32,000 bases of DNA from Candidatus Saccharimonadota bacterium. Lineage in GTDB: Bacteria; Patescibacteriota; Saccharimonadia; Saccharimonadales; UBA4665. The stretch is from contig CP064993.1 in the NCBI GenBank assembly GCA_016699955.1, forward strand, positions 780,001 to 812,000, in the 5' to 3' direction. The translations under genes and the position numbers were made by a program. The notes beneath the pieces are model-generated. The model ran no database searches. It was not told where the DNA came from and saw only the letters and a list, made by a program, of their open reading frames with translations. Positions 3,058 through 30,008 of this stretch are shown piece after piece. Position 1 is the stretch's first letter. Each line of letters begins with the position of its first letter.

Positions 3058-3190
3058 TTGTTTGGCTCCTTATCTTCCCTCATGATAGCATATTATCTAC
3101 CTCTAATTTATCAACCCCCACGAATAAGGTATAGCAGCCCCTCCTATTGAGTGAAACGAACCGGTGCGAAGCGCCGGCTTTAGGGGGTAG

Positions 3191-3222
3191 AAAAAAGCCC
3201 CGAATTTACTTCGGGGCTTTTT
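3191..3222 (-). terminator. Bidirectional-looking intrinsic terminator hairpin (distal copy)
   Basis: 8-bp GC-rich stem GCCCCGAA/TTCGGGGC, 5-nt loop, A-run on one side and T-run on the other. Confidence 0.6.
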
Positions 3223-3291
3223 AGAAGGGGCAAGCCCCTTCTACTAATTGAGTGAAACGAACCGGTGCGAAGCGCCGGCTTTAGGGGGTAG

Positions 3292-3323
3292 AAAAAAGCC
3301 CCGAATTTACTTCGGGGCTTTTT
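3292..3323 (-). terminator. Intrinsic terminator of the RRM-protein gene (proximal copy)
   Basis: Same hairpin as 3191-3222, about 25 nt downstream of the stop at 3349-3351. On the minus strand the stem is followed by TTTTTT. Confidence 0.75.
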
Positions 3324-3348
3324 AGAAGGGGCAAGCCCCTTCTACTGC

Positions 3349-8597: not shown

Positions 8598-9884
8598 ATG
8601 AAATTTATGAGCTTGGGTAATCAGAAAGATGTTGTTTCGTTTGAGCAAGCGTTAAGCCGGGGGATTCCTCCTGACGGCAGCCTGTACTATCCGGTAAAAA
8701 TCCCGCGTTTGTCTACAGAGCAAGTTGGCGCAATGCCTCAACTTGAGAAAAATGAAATCGATGCGGTCATGCTCGGTGCTTGGCTGAGCGACGAAATTCC
8801 GGCAGACGATCTTCGTAATATTGTCGATGCTGCTGCCTCTTTTGAAACACCAGCGGTTTCTGTTAGCGACAAGCATGTGCTAGAACTTTTTCATGGGCCT
8901 ACTATGGCATTTAAGGATGTCGCAGCGCGCTATCTTGCAGCCCTGATGGGCTATTTTAATGCCAAGACTGGGCGCACCTCTACAGTGCTTGTCGCCACAA
9001 GCGGCGATACGGGTGGGGCGATTGCCCACGGCTTTGGCGGTGTTGAGGGCACGCGAGTTGTCGTCCTCTACCCGAAAGGTCGTGTCAGCCAGCTTCAACA
9101 AGAACAACTGCGCCGCGCCGCCAACAACGTACATACACTGGAAGTTGAGGGCGACTTTGATACATGTCAGTCACTCGTCAAACAGGCTCTGGCCGACAAG
9201 CAGCTAGTAGAAAAGGTTGGCTTGACTTCAGCAAACTCCATTACTGTGGGGCGGCTACTTCCCCAAACACTATATTATGCACGTGTATACGCTCAGCTGG
9301 GCGGGCGCAGAGACTTGCGCTTTGTAGTACCGAGCGGTAACCTCGGCAATGTAACGGGCGGTGTTTTGGCACAGCAGATGGGTATACCAATTGCTTCTTT
9401 CTTGGCAGCCAATAATGCCAATAATGCCATAGATCGGTACGCGCAAACCGGCAACTTTACCCCGTTTGAAGCGGTGCCAACTATGTCAAACGCCATGGAT
9501 ATCGGGGCGCCAAATAACTTACCACGTTTGCGGCAGATTTTTGGTCAGGACGTCAATGCATTTCGCGCGGATATCCTGACTGCGCAAGTAAGTGACGAGC
9601 AAACGGTGGAGACAATCAAGAAGGTTTACGAAAAAACTGGCTACTTGCTTGACCCTCACACCGCAGTGGCGTGGTATGCGAGCGAACAGCACCCAAACAA
9701 AGATCTTCATGACGTTATTGTTTCTACGGCCGCCCCAGAAAAATTTGCCGAAGAAATTATGCGGGAGACAGGCATATTTGTCGATAACACTGCCGAGCTT
9801 GAAAAACTCCGTACGGTGCCTGAGCGCTTCACTTCAATCCCTAACTCCCTCGAAGCACTTAAACAAGAAATTCTAAACTCTTAA
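8598..9884 (+). CDS. thrC: Threonine synthase
   Basis: 428 aa, with the FHGPTMAFKD PLP-lysine motif and overall long-form ThrC layout. Confidence 0.93.
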   Translation: MKFMSLGNQKDVVSFEQALSRGIPPDGSLYYPVKIPRLSTEQVGAMPQLEKNEIDAVMLGAWLSDEIPADDLRNIVDAAASFETPAVSVSDKHVLELFHGPTMAFKDVAARYLAALMGYFNAKTGRTSTVLVATSGDTGGAIAHGFGGVEGTRVVVLYPKGRVSQLQQEQLRRAANNVHTLEVEGDFDTCQSLVKQALADKQLVEKVGLTSANSITVGRLLPQTLYYARVYAQLGGRRDLRFVVPSGNLGNVTGGVLAQQMGIPIASFLAANNANNAIDRYAQTGNFTPFEAVPTMSNAMDIGAPNNLPRLRQIFGQDVNAFRADILTAQVSDEQTVETIKKVYEKTGYLLDPHTAVAWYASEQHPNKDLHDVIVSTAAPEKFAEEIMRETGIFVDNTAELEKLRTVPERFTSIPNSLEALKQEILNS

Positions 9885-9908
9885 CTTATATCTCTCATCT
9901 CTGACATC

Positions 9909-15790: not shown

Positions 15791-15822
15791 GTCTCCTCCT
15801 TAATTGAATCATGAATTTTGAA

Positions 15823-16224
15823 TTATGAATCATGTAATTTGTTGTACTGCCGGGTAGTTTTTAGTAGGCCAGTTAGTAGCTTGTGGGTTATTACTGATTG
15901 CTTAGCAAGTATTTTAAAATCATCGGCTGTAATATAGCCAACGTCTCGACTAACTAAAAGTTGATTTTGTAGCTCAGTAAGCGAACCGTGAGCCATTGAA
16001 AAAAAATGTGCTTTATCAGGGTAGGATGGTCTTGAAAAACCCTCAGCAATATTTGATGTCACCGAGACAGCCGCTCGGCGAATCTGGCTGGTTAGCCCAA
16101 ATTGCTCGTTGACAGGAAACGTTTTTGTCGTAGTGTAAATGAGAATTACTAATTTATGACCTTCTTTCCGGGTGTCTAAGTCAGTAAAGCTCCTAATGCT
16201 TTTTTTACCTGCTTCATGATTCAT
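15823..16224 (-). CDS. Four-helix-bundle protein (23S rRNA intervening-sequence protein / Avd-like family)
   Basis: 133 aa with QIRRAAVSVTSNIAEG...HGSLTELQNQL motifs typical of the family. ATGA overlap with the purL stop. Confidence 0.85.
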   Translation of the reverse strand: MNHEAGKKSIRSFTDLDTRKEGHKLVILIYTTTKTFPVNEQFGLTSQIRRAAVSVTSNIAEGFSRPSYPDKAHFFSMAHGSLTELQNQLLVSRDVGYITADDFKILAKQSVITHKLLTGLLKTTRQYNKLHDS

Positions 16225-19200
16225 GCTTCATGATTCCTATCCGTTACCCAGTCGTGGGCGTTTACAAACATCTGGAGCCATGGTGAATCCTCTGGCCAGT
16301 CGGAGGGGTGCCAAGAAAGCTGACGGGTCATGAAAGCACGCTCGGGGTGTGGCATCATAATGGTGGCGCGACCGTCTGGTGTGGTAAGTGCTGTGATGCC
16401 CTCTGGTGAGCCATTTGGGTTGGTTGGATAGACTTCTGTCGGTTTGTGGTTGTCATCGACGAATTGTGCCGAAACTAGGCAGCTTTTTACTGCGGATTGC
16501 TGCTCCTGCTTTGACGCAAACGCCGCATAACCCTCGCCGTGTGCGACCGGTATGGGCAACACAGAGCCAGCCATACCCTTGAAAAAGATTGACGGTGATT
16601 CGTTTAACCTGATTTGCGGCAAGCGGGCTTCAAATCGTTCGCTGCGGTTTTGCAGGAACCGTGGCCAGTTATCTGCGCCTGGTATAAGTTCTTTCAGCTC
16701 AGAAAGCATTTGGCAGCCATTGCAGACGCCTAAACTAAAGGTGTTTGGTCGTTCAAAAAATGCTTTGAACTGTGCTCGAAGTTTTGGGTCAAAGAGGATG
16801 GTTTTTGCCCAGCCGCCCCCAGCGCCAAGCACGTCACCGTAGCTAAACCCGCCACAGGCAACAAGGCCGCTAAAGTCATCGAGTTTTGTTGTGCCAGTAA
16901 TGAGGTCGTTTAGGTGAACGTCTACGGCTAAAAAGCCGGCGCGGTTGAAGGCGGCGGCCATTTCGATTTGACCGTTGACACCTTGCTCACGGAGGATGGC
17001 AATTTGTGGGCGGTTGATATACCTTTTCTTATCTTTTTGAAGAGAGGCTTGCCCCTCTTGAGGTGTTTTCTTTGCTTCGCTCGAAAGCAGCCTCCGCTCC
17101 CCCGCTCGCTGTTCGCTCGCGGTGTGCGCTCGTTCGGTCAGCGGTGTACCCTCATTTGTTTGTTGCCTTAATGCCGCTACTCTTAACTCATAACTCTTAT
17201 CTCTTAACTTTAGCAGCGGGTTTAGCCCGGGGTTATTGTCATGGTTAATCAAAGCGTATTCTTGGTCGGCGCAGGCGGGGTTGTCGCGCAATTTTTGTAT
17301 GAGGTAACTGGTTTCTGCCCACCACTGTTCGAGCTGAGCGCGAGTACTTTTGTATACTATTTTCTGCCCATCGCTAAAAACAATATCTTGCGTTTTTGTG
17401 GGCTTGCCAATTGTGTACGCGGAGTCGCCAAAAACCCGGGATACAGTTTTTTCGTCTGTTGATTTTACTTGGATGACTACGCCGAGCTCTTCGTTAAATA
17501 GTTTTTCAATTGTTTCTCCGGGAAGAGCGGCGATTTTTATATCAAGTCCGCAACGGCTTGCAAATGCCATTTCGCATAGAGTTGTAAGTATTCCGCCATC
17601 TGAGCGGTCGTGGTATGCCAAAATCTTTCCGTCTGCTTTTAATTTTGTCAGTGAGTTAAAGAAGGATTTTAAGAGCGTCGGGTCAGCATCGGGTGTTTTG
17701 TCGCCTGTTTGGTTGTAAGCTTGCGCAAGCGCCGAGCCTCCCATTCGAGTCTGCCCACCGGAAAGATCGACAAACATGAGCAGCGAATCGGTAGTGGTGT
17801 CGAGCTGAGGCGTTAGTGTTTTGGTGACGTTAGTCACTGGGCTAAAGCCGGTTATAATGAGGCTAAGTGGTGATGTAACTGATTTTGCTTCTTTGCCATC
17901 AGTCCAAGTTGAACGCATGCTCAGGGAATCTTTGCCGACAGGAATAGTCAAGCCAAGCGCCGGGCAAAAATCTTCGCCGAGTATGTGGACAGTATCGTAG
18001 AGGGCTTGGTCTTCACTACCTTGTCCGGCCGCCGCCATCCAGTTGGCTGATAGTTTTATGTCTGATAGTTTTTTGACGTCGGCAGCCAGCATGTTTGTGA
18101 TGGTTTCGGCGACAGCCATACGGCCGGAGGCCGGTGCGTTGGAAACAGCCAGCGGCGTGCGTTCGCCCATGGTCATTGCCTCACCATGATTGCTCGTAAA
18201 CCCAACGGCAGAAACGGCTACGTCACTAACAGGCACCTGCCATGGTCCAACCATTTGATCACGGGTAATTAGGCCGGTGACGGTACGGTCGCCGATGGTT
18301 ATGAGGAACTTTTTGCTACCAACAGCGGGTACGTGAAGCACGCGCTCTACGGCCTCTTCAATGTCAATATTTGCAGTATTGAATGAAGCTGTCTGAGCCA
18401 ATACAGATGTATAGGTGCGTGTCATTTTGGGAGGTTTTCCAAAGAGTGTACTCATGGGTAGGTCTACGGTGTCGTTGTCGAGTAGATTATCATGCACGAC
18501 AAGTCGATCTTTGTCTGTCGCAGTACCAATGACGGTGAATGGACATCGTTCTCGTTTGCATATACTCGCGAAACGCTCAACGTCTGCTTCCCTTAGTCCT
18601 ATGACGTAGCGTTCCTGGGCCTCGTTGCACCAGATTTCCATAGGCGACATACCCGGGTCGGCATTGTCGATATTTCGTAGTTCAACCTCTGCTCCTAGGC
18701 CGGCGTCATGCACAAGCTCCGGCACGGCGTTACAGTAACCGCCGGCACCAATGTCGTGAATCATGACGATGGGGTTTTCGCTACTCGCCCAGCACGTGTC
18801 AATGACTTCCTGCGCGCGGCGTTCCATTTCGCCGTTTCCTCGCTGGACTGATGCAAAGTCGAGATCCGCGCTGCTTGCGCCGGTTTGCATGCTGCTGGCT
18901 GCGCCGCCGCCGAGACCAATGAGCATAGCTGGCCCACCGAGGATGATAATTTTGTCGCCGGCTTTTAGCTTGCCTTTTTGAACGTGCTGGTCGCGGATGT
19001 TCCCCAGACCGCCGGCAATCATGATCGGTTTATGATAGCCGCGTACGCTTTGACCATCGTGTTGCTCAAAGGTACGGAAGTAGCCAGCTAGGTTTGGGCG
19101 ACCAAATTCGTTAGCGAACGCCGCGCCGCCTAAAGGAGCGTCTATCATAATGCCCAGCGGTGAGGTAATCCTGCTTGGTTTTCCGTATGGTTTTTCCCAA

Positions 19201-22227: not shown

Positions 22228-22682
22228 ATGACTAATATTGTTTTTGATTGGAAGCGGACGCTGTACGAACCCGAGGAGGATGAGCTTATTGGCGGGGCGC
22301 TTGAACTTCTGGAATGGCTGGGCAGCCAGGAGATTCCCACGGTACTTATCGGTAAGGGCGACACTGATATGTACGGTAAAGTAGATCGGCTAGGAGTACG
22401 GCAGTATTTCTCGCAAGTTATATTTCGCGAGGGTGCAAAGATACAGATCTATTTGCCCTTTTTGTCAACACGTTTGATGCTAAGCAAACAGTCTTCATCG
22501 GTGACCGTGTACGCTCAGAGCTTGCGGTTGGAAATGTGCTTGGCGCTACAACGATTTGGGTGAAGCAAGGCAAGTTTGCAAACGAGTTACCAGAACTGGA
22601 TAGTGAGAAGCCCACCTCTACAGTTGCCTCATTGACGGAGGTGAAAAACCTTCTCACCAAACTTCAGCAAGTCAAATACTAG
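22228..22682 (+). pseudogene. HAD-like hydrolase interrupted by a -1 frame change at 22437-22440 (AAAG)
   Basis: Frame 1 reads ...FREGAK and then degenerates. The -1 frame continues as DTDLFALFVNTFDAKQTVFIGDRVRSELAVGNVLGATTIWVKQGKF... to a TAG at 22680-22682. Confidence 0.65.
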
Positions 22683-23197
22683 GAGTGGCTTTCTAGGTAG
22701 CCCTGCCAGCCTTGTTGTTGGAGTTTTGCGTCGGCGGTGAGGACGCTGTCGTGTTGATCGGCGCGGAAAGCGACGTACTTATTGGCAAGAGTGGTGTCAC
22801 TCAAGGCTAGGATTTCTACTGCCATAAGGGCGGCGTTGCGGGCACCATTTTCGGGCATGGTTGCTAGCGGGATGCCGGGGGGCATTTTTATACTGGACCA
22901 AAATGCTTCGTGGCCGTGGTGGTCGCGTTTTATGGGAACGGCAATGACGGGCAGCGTGGTGTGTGAGGCCGTCATGCCGGGGAGGTGTGCCGACCCGCCT
23001 GCCCCAGCGATGATAACTTTCAGTCCGCGCTCGGCTGCAGTCCGCGCGTACTCTTCCATGACATCTGGCGTGCGATGCGCCGAAACCACGCGTACCTCAT
23101 AACTAATCCCAAAATTATCTAGCATTTTGGCAGCTTCACTCATGATGTCGAGATCGCTATCTGACCCCATTATGATGCCGACAACTGGTTTGTTCAT
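22679..23197 (-). CDS. purE: N5-carboxyaminoimidazole ribonucleotide mutase (class I PurE)
   Basis: GSDSD and AGGSAHLPGM motifs, a purK partner nearby, and an AAGGAGG RBS. Confidence 0.95.
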   Translation of the reverse strand: MNKPVVGIIMGSDSDLDIMSEAAKMLDNFGISYEVRVVSAHRTPDVMEEYARTAAERGLKVIIAGAGGSAHLPGMTASHTTLPVIAVPIKRDHHGHEAFWSSIKMPPGIPLATMPENGARNAALMAVEILALSDTTLANKYVAFRADQHDSVLTADAKLQQQGWQGYLESHS

Positions 23198-23210
23198 ACA
23201 ATCCTCCTTA

Positions 23211-23292
23211 GATTTAAGAGATAAGAGTCATGAGTCATGAGTTTTGACCAACCGTGCGAAATATCGCTCTTATCTCTTATCTCATATCTCTT
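23211..23292 (-). repeat. Gene-less heptad-repeat hairpin element between purK and purE
   Basis: AAGAGATAAGAG (23216-23227) is perfectly complementary to CTCTTATCTCTT (23267-23278). Both arms continue as 7-nt-periodic GAG/CTC repeats. The loop is 39 nt. The element abuts the purE RBS. Confidence 0.8.
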
Positions 23293-23306
23293 GTCGTTAT
23301 ACCACA

Positions 23307-24440
23307 TCATATGCTCAGTAAGCTCCGGGCTTTTCGGGCGTTTTTACGAGCAGTTTCTATGTCCGAACCTGTGACGGTGATGTGACCCATTTTGCGGTCG
23401 ATTTTGGTCGGGGATTTGCCATAAAGGTGGATGCTTGCACCTGGGATGGCCAAAACATCAGGGGTGCCTTTTACCTGGGTTTCGCCGTCTCGCTCTCCCA
23501 GGATGTTTATCATGACGGCTGCGGCTACGACGAGGCTTGTGTCCCCCAGTGGTAAACCGGCAATGGCGCGGATGTGTTGCTCGAACTGTGAAGTGCGGCA
23601 GGCTTCGGTGGTGTAGTGGCCGCTGTTGTGAACTCGTGGTGCGATTTCGTTTACTAGTACTTCACCATCTCGCGTCAGGAAAAGCTCTATGCCAAATGTT
23701 CCCGCACCGCTAAGCAGCCCAGCGACCTGGCGGGCAACGGCTTCGGCTTGCTTCATTATTTCAGCCGAAACTGGCGCTGGCACAAGTACCTCGGTGCAAA
23801 TGTTCCGCTTGTGAATAGTCTGGACGATGGGGTAGAGTGCGACATTGCCCTGCATGTCTCGCGCAACCATAACGGCTAGTTCGCTTTCAAAGTCGACGAG
23901 GCCTTCGGCGTAAAGAGCCTTGCCCGCAAAATTCTTTAGTGCCTGATCAAGATCAGCTTCAGAGCGAACAACCATGTTGCCACGGCCGTCGTAGGCGCCG
24001 TGACGGGTTTTGACTATCATGCAACCGCCGAACTGCTTGAGGGCATCCCGAGCGGAACTTTCCCCTGTTATTTCGGCGAATGGGGCTAGGGGAACTTTAT
24101 TATCTTGGAGAAACTGCTTCTGAGCATACTTGTCCTGGATGAGCCGGATGGTGCTGGGCGACGGGTTTATTGTCGCCCCATTTTGTTCCAACTTTGCTAA
24201 TGCGTCGGCGTCAAGATGCTCGATTTCCACGGTAATGTAGTTTGACTCGGTCGCCAGTTGTTCGAGCGCGCGTTCGTCATATAGGTTGGCGACGATTTGC
24301 CGCGCTCCTACCTGCTCTGCTGGGCAATGTTTGCCTGGGTCAACAACAACAATTTCAAAGCCAAGCGGTTTGGCGGCAAGCGTGAGCATGCGACCTAACT
24401 GTCCGCCGCCGACAATACCAATAGTCTCGACTGCTCCCAT
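23307..24440 (-). CDS. purK: N5-carboxyaminoimidazole ribonucleotide synthase
   Basis: 377 aa, ATP-grasp, with an N-terminal GIVGGGQLGRM motif. Confidence 0.93.
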   Translation of the reverse strand: MGAVETIGIVGGGQLGRMLTLAAKPLGFEIVVVDPGKHCPAEQVGARQIVANLYDERALEQLATESNYITVEIEHLDADALAKLEQNGATINPSPSTIRLIQDKYAQKQFLQDNKVPLAPFAEITGESSARDALKQFGGCMIVKTRHGAYDGRGNMVVRSEADLDQALKNFAGKALYAEGLVDFESELAVMVARDMQGNVALYPIVQTIHKRNICTEVLVPAPVSAEIMKQAEAVARQVAGLLSGAGTFGIELFLTRDGEVLVNEIAPRVHNSGHYTTEACRTSQFEQHIRAIAGLPLGDTSLVVAAAVMINILGERDGETQVKGTPDVLAIPGASIHLYGKSPTKIDRKMGHITVTGSDIETARKNARKARSLLSI

Positions 24441-28815: not shown

Positions 28816-28912
28816 CCCAGAATAATCCACTTTATTCATCTTCTTAAAATCACTGTAGCCAGCATTATGTCATCACTGTAGGTGCTGATGTGCGGGTTGC
28901 ACCGGAGAACTC

Positions 28913-28947
28913 TTAACTCTAAACCCATAACTCTGTATACTGAAAGC
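28913..28947 (+). promoter_or_regulatory. Candidate promoter of purC: TTAACT-17-TATACT-6-ATG
   Basis: Hexamers read directly. There is no Shine-Dalgarno sequence in the 6-nt gap. Confidence 0.4.
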
Positions 28948-29906
28948 ATGAGTGAAAAAATTCTTGAGGGAACGAGTTTTTCGTTGCCTGGTCAACAGGC
29001 GGTGTATCACGGCAAAGTACGTGATGTCTATGACTTTGGCGACAAACTGATGATGGTAACGAGCGACCGCTATAGCGCCTTTGACCGGATTCTGGCGGTG
29101 GTCCCTAACAAGGGTGCACTACTGACGGCAACTAGCCGTTGGTGGTTCGAGCAAACAGCGCACATAGTACCGAATCATATTATTTCCTACCCCGATCCAA
29201 ACGTCAGCTACTGCCACAAATACGAAGTTATACCGCTGGAAATGGTTGTACGTGGCTACATAACGGGCGTGACAAATACATCCCTGTGGCATACCTACTC
29301 AGAAGGTCAGCGTAATTACGGTGCTTTCACTCTACCAAACGGGCTGAAAAAGAATGATAAGCTAACCGAACCAGTGCTGACGCCGACAACGAAGTTCGAA
29401 ATCCATGACCGCAACCTGACACCGGCCGAAGCGCTGACAGAAGGACTTTTGAAGGACGAAGTTTGGCAGCGCGTCAGTAACTTTGCGGTTCAGCTTTTTA
29501 CATTTGGTCAGAAAAAGCCGAAGCAAAAGGACTGCTGCTGGTCGACACTAAGTACGAGTTTGGCCTTACCCCACAAGGTGAAATTATATTGATAGATGAA
29601 ATACACACCCAGGATTCGTCGCGCTATTGGCTGGCCGAAACCTACCATCAGCGCATTGCCCAGGGCATGGAACCAGAAAACTATGACAAAGAATATTTGC
29701 GACTGTGGTTCAAGGAGCGTTTCGACCCCTACAGTGACACGCCCGCGCCAGAAGTGCCAGCCGATATAATTGCCGAGTTGGAGCGCCGCTACCTGTTTGT
29801 TTACGAAAGCCTGACAGGCGAAGTTTTTGAGCAGCCCGATACGGAAAATATTGAAAAACGGATTGAAACAAATTTGCGTCAAGCGCTGGGTCAATATGAT
29901 AGTTAA
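28948..29906 (+). pseudogene. purC: SAICAR synthase interrupted by a -1 frame change at 29512-29517 (AAAAAG)
   Basis: Frame 1 (ATG 28948) reads MSEKILEG...YHGKVRDVYDFG...SDRYSAFDR... to FGQKK and then degenerates. The -1 frame continues as AEAKGLLLVDTKYEFGLTPQGEIILIDEIHTQDSSRYW... to 29906. Confidence 0.85.
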
Positions 29907-29984
29907 GGGTTACGAGATAGGAGATAAGAATTGTGCTTTGCATAGTGCATTTCGTGCCTTAACTCACATATCCTATCCCTTAAC
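29902..29984 (+). repeat. Gene-less heptad-repeat hairpin element between purC and purB
   Basis: The purine arm TAAGGGT TACGAGA TAGGAGA TAAGAAT (29902-29930) faces the pyrimidine arm CCTTAACTCACATATCCTATCCCTTAAC (29957-29984). The terminal 8 bp GTTAAGGG/CCCTTAAC are perfect. The element abuts the purB RBS. Confidence 0.75.
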
Positions 29985-30008
29985 TTTAACCGCTAAGGAG
30001 GAAAGACG

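Follow-up and report, generated by a model that had tools for sequence, protein, structure and literature searches.

The purK-purE spacer and its hairpin

The 32,000-nucleotide (nt) stretch analysed here, which we call the window, comprises bases 780001-812000 of a single-contig 1.21-Mb Saccharibacteria genome with a G+C content of 47.8%. It is rich in genes for purine synthesis, and the subject of this work is a small hairpin that separates two of them, purK (23307-24440) and purE (22679-23197; PF00731, AIRC). Both genes lie on the minus strand, with a spacer of 109 nt between them, and the arms of the hairpin consist of tandem 7-nt units, or heptads. Read in the purE sense, the purK stop codon (23309-23307) is followed after 14 nt by a purine arm (23292-23267), a loop, a pyrimidine arm (23241-23215), a further 5 nt, the Shine-Dalgarno sequence AAGGAGG (23209-23203) and the purE ATG (23197-23195).

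The 5' (purine) arm holds 3.7 heptads (AAGAGAT ATGAGAT AAGAGAT AAGAG) and is at once a tandem and an inverted repeat; the 3' (pyrimidine) arm (CTCATGA CTCATGA CTCTTAT CTCTTAA) is a mosaic of two heptad families, with units of the CTCATGA and CTCTTAW types. An earlier reading of the locus, made from the bare letters and referred to here as the sequence-only reading, had described a perfect 12-bp stem, extended by heptads on both arms, around a 39-nt loop lacking an open reading frame (ORF), and both this description and its coordinates are correct. A repeat search recovered the stem as a perfect inverted repeat (23215-23227 and 23267-23279; 100% complementary, with 39 nt between the arms) that is one base longer, at 13 nt, and Tandem Repeats Finder reported the extensions as GAGTCAT x2.6 at 23225-23242 and CTCTTAT x3.7 at 23267-23292. 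Paired in register, the arms form 19 Watson-Crick and 2 G.U pairs over 26 positions (-14.7 kcal/mol) around a loop of 25 nt (23242-23266); in the slipped register, the 13 perfect base pairs lie inside the minimum-energy fold (-24.3 kcal/mol) and leave a loop of 39 nt (23228-23266). The ORF list contains no frame within the loop at either length (25-39 nt).

Folded as RNA, the 109-nt spacer is more stable than its shuffled versions, in line with the hairpin that had been described, but only moderately so (-26.6 kcal/mol, z -2.1), and the 92-nt element taken alone reaches z -2.9. The purE copy is the weakest folder of the five family members that were folded, the others having z-scores of -3.6 to -6.5 and the well-kept copies of -4.2 to -6.5. 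The predicted fold leaves the purE ribosome-binding site unpaired. In the purE sense, the A/U-rich stem is followed by AAAUCUAAGGAGG, with no terminator-like U tract, which speaks against an intrinsic terminator. A search of the window with Rfam 15, purine riboswitches included, gave no match at gathering score, the sole sub-threshold match being a chance snoRNA (E 0.69), and Rfam likewise placed no rRNA within the window; the element sits between purK and purE and not in an rRNA helix.

The hairpin family and its gene-bearing relatives

A covariance model, R1, was built from seven copies of the hairpin, the purE copy among them. The whole purE element (23206-23301) matches R1 on the minus strand with 73.6 bits (E 6e-16), compared with 45.1 bits on the opposite strand. 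The seven copies align gap-free, and the unit order of the 5' arm (AGAGATA AGAGATA TGAGATA AGAGWTA AGA) is conserved among them; the same order of unit variants is common to several species and to the gene-bearing cassettes described below. R1 detects the hairpin in 17 of the genus's 28 genomes; matches on the two strands together number 0-34 in a genome, at up to ~17 loci, and the E-value of the best copy is <=1e-16 in five genomes and <1e-10 in most of the 17. The sequence-only reading had allowed that the likeness between copies might prove no better than that of shuffled low-complexity sequence. It exceeds chance expectation: in addition to the R1 E-value, arrays of the CTCTTAW type occur at ~18 loci in the genome under study, against ~1 expected from order-3 Markov shuffles.

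Within this genome, R1 places the hairpin before purE, before purB and between rpsH and rplF, together with a weak fourth locus. The purB copy, a second gene-less hairpin, lies in the purC-purB spacer (29892-29991, plus strand; 77.5 bits, E 6e-17; fold z -3.6) and has an ortholog upstream of purB in the relative G003. Elsewhere in the genus the hairpin stands before rplF in six genomes and between atpA and atpG in at least four. The arm words vary between gene-less copies, and the type of site is shared: of the 21 gene-less copies sampled, 19 or more fill the spacer between co-directional genes, with a stop codon at the 5' arm and a start codon 10-20 nt past the 3' arm (co-directional pairs make up ~67% of adjacent gene pairs in this genome). 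When all heptad words are counted, 27 of the 33 arrays in the genome are found 0-40 nt upstream of a start codon.

Some copies deserve separate mention. Two decayed two-armed elements were seen in the same genome, one between atpA and atpG (genome 862776-862870) whose 5' arm is CATGAAT x4 and whose 3' arm is degraded, the other (genome 986586-986684) with heptad words that do not match (GAGACAA versus CATGACT). The relative G015 has three near-identical units of hairpin, ribosome-binding site and start codon within 8 kb (contig C33, 114-122 kb); since the identity extends over the neighbouring ribosome-binding site and start codon, the copies apparently spread along with the beginnings of paralogous genes. 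We also note that seven loops in relatives, among them that of the G003 copy upstream of purB and that of one of the three G015 units, have a short stem built around GCGAAGC or around GCTTCGC, its complement. As DNA, GCGAAGC forms a mini-hairpin of exceptional stability, and its presence in the loops hints at folding of single-stranded DNA.

The gene-bearing relatives of the hairpin carry within their loop a member of PF05635, a family called '23S rRNA intervening sequence protein' (IVP), whose protein was first met in ORF-carrying intervening sequences within 23S rRNA. The genome has a single IVP gene, in a cassette between purL and purH (15804-16236, minus strand) that comprises a 5' arm of the GAATCAT type (16236-16210), a PF05635 ORF of 133 codons (16224-15823) and a 3' arm (15839-15804). 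The IVP ATG overlaps the purL TGA as ATGA (16221-16224), inside the 5' heptad arm; judging from this arrangement, translation of the gene appears to be coupled to that of purL, and pairing of the arms would hide its start codon. In relatives the number of IVP genes per genome reaches 12, and in a sample of 201 Patescibacteria genomes PF05635 was present in 96, at up to 12 copies in genomes of ~1 Mb.

We read the flanks of 30 IVP genes of the genus and analysed 29 loci, most of which have the same order: a housekeeping gene's stop codon, a first arm with 3-5 heptads, the IVP ORF (starting in or just past that arm), the complementary arm and, for the gene that follows, a Shine-Dalgarno sequence and a start codon. 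The heptad words differ from cassette to cassette (GAGTCAT, AGTAAGT, CAGCAGA, GAATTAC, GATTATC and others), and the two arms of a cassette fit each other: the duplex energy of a cassette's own arms averages -35.6 kcal/mol in the genus, versus -20.1 kcal/mol (sd 7.0) for arms drawn from cassettes at different sites. At 30 loci from other Patescibacteria families, the corresponding values are -31.0 and -20.0.

The arms themselves tie the two forms together. The purE 5' arm, AAGAGATATGAGATAAGAGATAAGAG, agrees at 24 of 26 bases with the 5' arm of the rpsG-fusA IVP cassette in G003 and G006, where that arm directly precedes the IVP start codon; the rpsG-fusA cassette of G037 has the same arm as the gene-less hairpins, and that of G032 a more diverged one. 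The only IVP cassette of the genome under study has arms of the GAATCAT type, and no IVP cassette with the AGAGWTA word family is present there. The sequence-only reading had taken the purE hairpin for a gene-less counterpart of the four-helix-bundle cassette, and this view is borne out by the arms that it shares with filled cassettes, by the common type of site and by the states found at orthologous junctions. One argument made for it, that the purine arm comes first as it does at purH, is uninformative, because an inverted repeat of purine arm, loop and pyrimidine arm reads in that order on either strand.

The purE-proximal junction was compared in the 12 congeners having purE. The same two-armed element precedes purE in G003, with a loop unrelated in sequence to that of the purE copy described here. 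Two direct copies of the hairpin bracket an extra gene for a HAD-family hydrolase between purK and purE in G015 and G014, and the two bracketing hairpins of G015 are nearly identical, loop included. An R1-type hairpin is present at the purE-proximal junction in the genome under study and in G003, G015 and G014. The junction copy of G010 has diverged heptad arms, in G008 a 445-nt insert is enclosed by arms that use a different word (CGAAACT), and G006 has the pyrimidine (3') arm only; no element was found before purE in the other six congeners, G002, G004, G007, G013, G016 and G017. The orthologous purE copies likewise run directly into AAGGAG. Seven relatives have the HAD gene between purK and purE, and it has no ortholog in the genome under study. 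Its deletion by recombination between flanking direct hairpins would plausibly leave a solo hairpin like the purE copy; the EF-G tree lacks the resolution to say which way the change went. Other palindromic families, GTCATCCTGA...TCAGGATGAC-like and GATTCCGGA...TCCGGAATGAC-like, were observed in the purK-purE spacers of G010, G008 and G013, sometimes within the loop of a heptad hairpin.

Several states of the insertion can be seen at single junctions. Between purL and purH, the cassette is filled in six genomes; two have a gene-less heptad hairpin there, four a single 5' arm accompanied by other repeats, and two a naked spacer of 28-38 nt; orthologous filled cassettes were identified at this junction in five relatives (G006, G017, G008, G032 and G039). 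Between rpsG and fusA, nine of the 22 genomes scored have a filled cassette (G003 being a tenth) and two have a naked spacer (5-8 nt). The 164-nt rpsG-fusA spacer of G031, a genome that otherwise scores zero for IVP genes and hairpins, retains, besides the 3' heptad arm, just the final ~50 nt of an IVP ORF, and this truncated remnant indicates that decay by deletion does occur. The IVP protein tree groups by insertion site and not by genome, with clusters (ultrafast bootstrap/SH-like approximate likelihood-ratio test, SH-aLRT) for rpsG-fusA (96/91), prfA (100/100), ssb-rpsR (99/99), efp (100/94) and purL-purH (82/90). It follows that the cassettes have long been resident and are inherited vertically. 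The word of the arms has shifted from species to species at one and the same site, with the two arms still complementary. Finally, the number of hairpins tracks the number of IVP genes across genomes (Spearman rho 0.82): all 17 hairpin-bearing genomes have IVP genes, and none of the seven IVP-free genomes has a hairpin.

Origin and maintenance of the purE element

The explanation that we prefer, and regard as probable when taken as a whole, is that the hairpin between purK and purE belongs to a family of small insertions, as a copy that has no gene and has partly decayed; its identity as an empty cassette, considered by itself, is highly probable. Members of this family consist of two opposed, mutually complementary arrays of ~4 7-nt units, and they sit exactly between the stop codon of one operon gene and the Shine-Dalgarno sequence of the next. 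Within the purK-purE transcript, the arms would fold back so that the insertion forms a hairpin of its own, with a base that sets the purK stop codon beside the free purE ribosome-binding site, an arrangement expected to disturb operon expression little, and the purE copy could be tolerated by virtue of folding on itself and leaving that ribosome-binding site free. Because it has 13 perfect base pairs or 21 of 26 in register, a mosaic 3' arm and no cassette of its word family in the same genome, the purE copy is most likely a nearly neutral, orphaned relic rather than a tuned regulator of purE. Granted that it is an empty cassette, we would give roughly even chances to its being a neutral passenger; an effect on RNase III processing or mRNA stability, suggested by analogy, is possible and less likely, and service as a site bound by an IVP-type protein is improbable.

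A number of observations weigh against this explanation. No filled cassette was found at purK-purE among the sampled relatives, and a tblastn search for IVP remnants came back empty for the loop of the purE copy and for the purK-purE spacers across 12 genomes (best E 0.5), so that the purE copy may either have lost an ORF or never have had one. Three of the four cassettes at the prfA site have a complete hairpin before the ORF and no arms around it, and one atpG-atpD cassette has no clear 3' arm. The correlation between hairpins and IVP genes is confounded by phylogeny and genome size, the labels being clustered on the tree, and the number of Y1_Tnp-like (IS200/RAYT-type) genes correlates equally well with that of hairpins (rho 0.86). 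The compensatory changes looked for in the R1 hairpin family following the sequence-only reading did not emerge, there being no covariation beyond shuffles or slid controls, and some arm mismatches are conserved, such as a T-T in seven of seven copies. Sense-strand G.U pairs show no excess over A.C (15 versus 30 in hairpins, 16 versus 20 in cassettes), and R1 hits outside the training copies are of mixed orientation relative to genes.

The lack of covariation, of a G.U excess and of a consistent orientation argues against selection on the sense RNA alone, and the complementarity of the arms could instead be maintained by folding of single-stranded DNA or by templated repair or homogenisation from arm to arm. 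On the side of selection at the RNA level stand the precise placement of the elements within operons, in the gap between a stop codon and the Shine-Dalgarno sequence that follows, and the strong folding of the well-kept copies.

The position of the element between purK and purE, with the Shine-Dalgarno sequence left free, would also suit a cis-regulatory RNA that serves the pur operon specifically (as attenuator, processing signal or device for translational coupling) and was selected for the control of purE, and the sequence-only reading had suggested, in a similar sense, possible control over processing, stability or translational coupling of the purK-purE transcript. Heptads are concentrated in the pur-rich window, with ~6 loci in its 32 kb versus ~25 in the remaining 1.2 Mb, and at the purE junction three congeners have an R1-type hairpin and three more some heptad arms. 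The same element, however, stands before rplF, atpG and other non-purine genes, is missing at the purE-proximal junction in half of the congeners and has a different loop in G003, and it comes with no covariation, no excess of sense-strand wobble pairs, no Rfam match and no terminator-like U tract. The proposed control of the transcript is not upheld by these results, and we consider a pur-specific regulator very unlikely. A role in DNA, with the pyrimidine array acting as a -35 or upstream element or as a transcription-factor site for purE, draws on the solo CTCTTAA arrays of six genes, purC among them, where TTAACT precedes a TATACT -10 box by exactly 17 nt, on the recurrence in this genome of TATACT followed by 6-8 nt and ATG, which is consistent with leaderless transcripts, and on the placement of most heptad arrays shortly upstream of start codons. 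At purE, however, the array is followed by a Shine-Dalgarno leader in place of a TATACT-like -10 box, as are the orthologous copies by AAGGAG, and a promoter or operator would explain neither the second, complementary arm nor the IVP cassettes; this, too, has very little to recommend it in our estimation.

Dispersed, imperfect palindromes of 75-150 nt in operon spacers, at 0-17 loci per genome, also bring to mind repetitive extragenic palindromes (REP) and bacterial interspersed mosaic elements (BIME), or miniature inverted-repeat transposable elements, moved by a Y1 transposase (of IS200 type or of the REP-associated tyrosine transposase type, RAYT), in which case the association with IVP genes would be secondary. 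The equally good correlation of Y1_Tnp-like genes with hairpins favours such a mobile palindrome, as do the number of these genes (2-7 in hairpin-bearing genomes and one in hairpin-free genomes, except for four in G004) and the local grouping of near-identical copies in G015. Against it, Y1-like genes occur in all 28 genomes, hairpin-free ones included, and do not adjoin heptad arrays or hairpins either in the genome under study, which has three, or in G015; no conserved GTAG-type head was seen, the arm words are copy-specific with no single consensus, the IVP cassettes are site-faithful across the genus, and the G015 copies, as noted above, spread with paralogous genes. We think this origin quite improbable. 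There is hardly any chance, finally, that the arms are low-complexity sequence born of slippage, accidentally complementary and unrelated to IVP cassettes. Slippage is evidently active, as perfect (CTCTTAA)x6-7 arrays elsewhere attest, and it would accord with the modest fold z-score of the purE copy and with arm mismatches that are mostly A.A or T.T, from shuffled unit variants. It is already largely refuted by the conserved arm sequence, in which the 5'-arm order (..AGAGATA TGAGATA AGAGWTA..) persists across species and into filled cassettes, and further by the low R1 E-values in most of the hairpin-bearing genomes, by the recurrence of paired arms at the same type of junction and by the excess of arrays over the ~1 expected by chance.

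The empty-cassette explanation places the element beside a well-known kind of insertion. ORF-bearing intervening sequences (IVSs) are known from the 23S rRNA of Leptospira. In Coxiella burnetii, the 23S rRNA IVS has a 28-bp terminal stem, cut by RNase III in mid-stem, and an S23p ORF in its loop (PMC4990558), and IVP ORFs have been described in rRNA insertions of bacteria of the Candidate Phyla Radiation (PMC11270868). The family studied here resembles these in its stems, which span ~27-31 positions (medians), and in the PF05635 gene carried in the loop of its filled members; the purE element also rides within a host transcript, in a host that has RNase III. It differs in its place, an mRNA spacer as opposed to helix 25 or 45 of 23S rRNA, in arms built of tandem 7-nt units, in the lack of an ORF in the purE copy and in that excision by RNase III is something we infer here. 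Given the cutting of the Coxiella stem by RNase III, the similar stem span and the presence of the rnc gene (genome 1156717-1157409, minus strand, outside the window), the well-paired copies are probable substrates of this enzyme by analogy. The rnc start is itself preceded, at 9 nt, by a GTAGATT x3 heptad array (genome 1157418-1157440).

Other repeat systems offer partial likenesses. Short tandemly repeated heptamers (STRR) were reportedly described by Mazel et al. in 1990 in heterocystous cyanobacteria. They too are tandem 7-nt intergenic units, with several word families per genome and an unexplained function; the likeness is one of design only, since the words and the phylum are others, and the arrays here form opposed complementary pairs tied to one gene family and to spacers running from stop codon to Shine-Dalgarno sequence. 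REP/BIME elements with their RAYTs share the imperfect palindromes within operons, the tens of copies and the possible effects on mRNA stability, but the family described here has no single consensus and no conserved head motif, and its palindromes do not flank Y1-like genes. Integron attC sites and cassettes are comparable in being sequence-variable, imperfect palindromes with conserved mismatches between promoterless genes, an impression strengthened by the bracketed HAD gene of G015 and G014. The cassettes here, in contrast, are site-faithful across species and have two arms around each ORF as opposed to one attC after it; no link to an integrase was seen, and none was looked for. Avd, the accessory protein of diversity-generating retroelements, belongs to the same Pfam family as IVP (PMC10053308), and the cargo of the filled cassettes is likewise a four-helix-bundle PF05635 protein. 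Here, however, the parallel ends: the genome has no reverse transcriptase that could serve as partner to an Avd-like protein, and no template or variable repeats.

We found no paper that joins Saccharibacteria with heptanucleotide repeats and, in the literature on PF05635, TIGR02436 and STRR, no description of heptad-armed IVP cassettes or of their empty forms in operons. The element is apparently an IVS-type insertion living in mRNA spacers, here without its gene, and as such apparently new to the literature. PF05635 is a very common family of unknown function, and the heptamers beside bacterial genes have stayed unexplained since their description in cyanobacteria; the arms common to the hairpin and the IVP cassettes, together with the four junction states, provide a concrete and testable link between the IVP family, the heptamers and the rRNA intervening sequence. 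The elements sit in core operons of minimal genomes (ribosomal proteins, ATP synthase, purine synthesis, EF-G), where they can act as a source of -35 boxes and become part of coding sequence, as in purL, and could be mistaken for gene-specific regulators. A further and rather unlikely extension of the same idea is that PF05635 proteins and heptad arrays make up one system, in which a pentameric four-helix-bundle protein would read ~4-4.5 7-nt units per arm on folded DNA or RNA, and the gene-less hairpins would be non-autonomous sites, served in trans or orphaned upon loss of the cognate gene. The closest solved IVP relatives, 2gsc and 2rld, have five chains per entry each. If such a system exists, the heptamer repeats of bacteria, cyanobacterial STRR included, would be its footprints and the rRNA intervening sequence one special insertion site.

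Other heptad arrays and features of the window

The solo pyrimidine array before purC (28908-28941, plus strand) contains TTAACT (28913-28918), and 17 nt beyond it TATACT (28936-28941), ahead of an ATG at 28948. By its sequence, this array provides a promoter with its -35 box, the mRNA being leaderless or nearly so, and the GTG start of purC at 28882 in the ORF list is probably wrong. The other solo (CTCTTAA)n arrays with TATACT lie at genome positions 457026, 675379, 1015158 (minus strand), 1085942 and 480456 (minus strand), with a start codon 6-10 nt past TATACT. The genome contains GTATACT 228 times, and TATACT 739 times compared with 552 for TATAAT; dozens of GTATACT copies stand 6-9 nt before an ATG, a pattern that suggests widespread leaderless transcripts with a TATACT -10 box.

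An in-frame heptad array of the AGAGTTA family lies inside purL (17179-17209, minus strand) and encodes the peptide KLRDKSYELRV. It occupies a hypervariable linker that closely follows the conserved DPGLxP motif and precedes the glutaminase domain, and the purL genes of relatives have other heptad-derived peptides at the same spot (ESRGMRHE, ESGIWNLESR); the array seems to be an element of the intercistronic type that has been absorbed into the coding sequence. A further solo array (9878-9902, plus strand) overlaps the stop codon of a threonine-synthase-like gene and ends 7 nt before the next start. Apart from the heptads, the window contains a perfect 101-bp tandem duplication (3146-3346; 2.0 copies, 100% identity) with terminator-like, G+C-rich hairpins.

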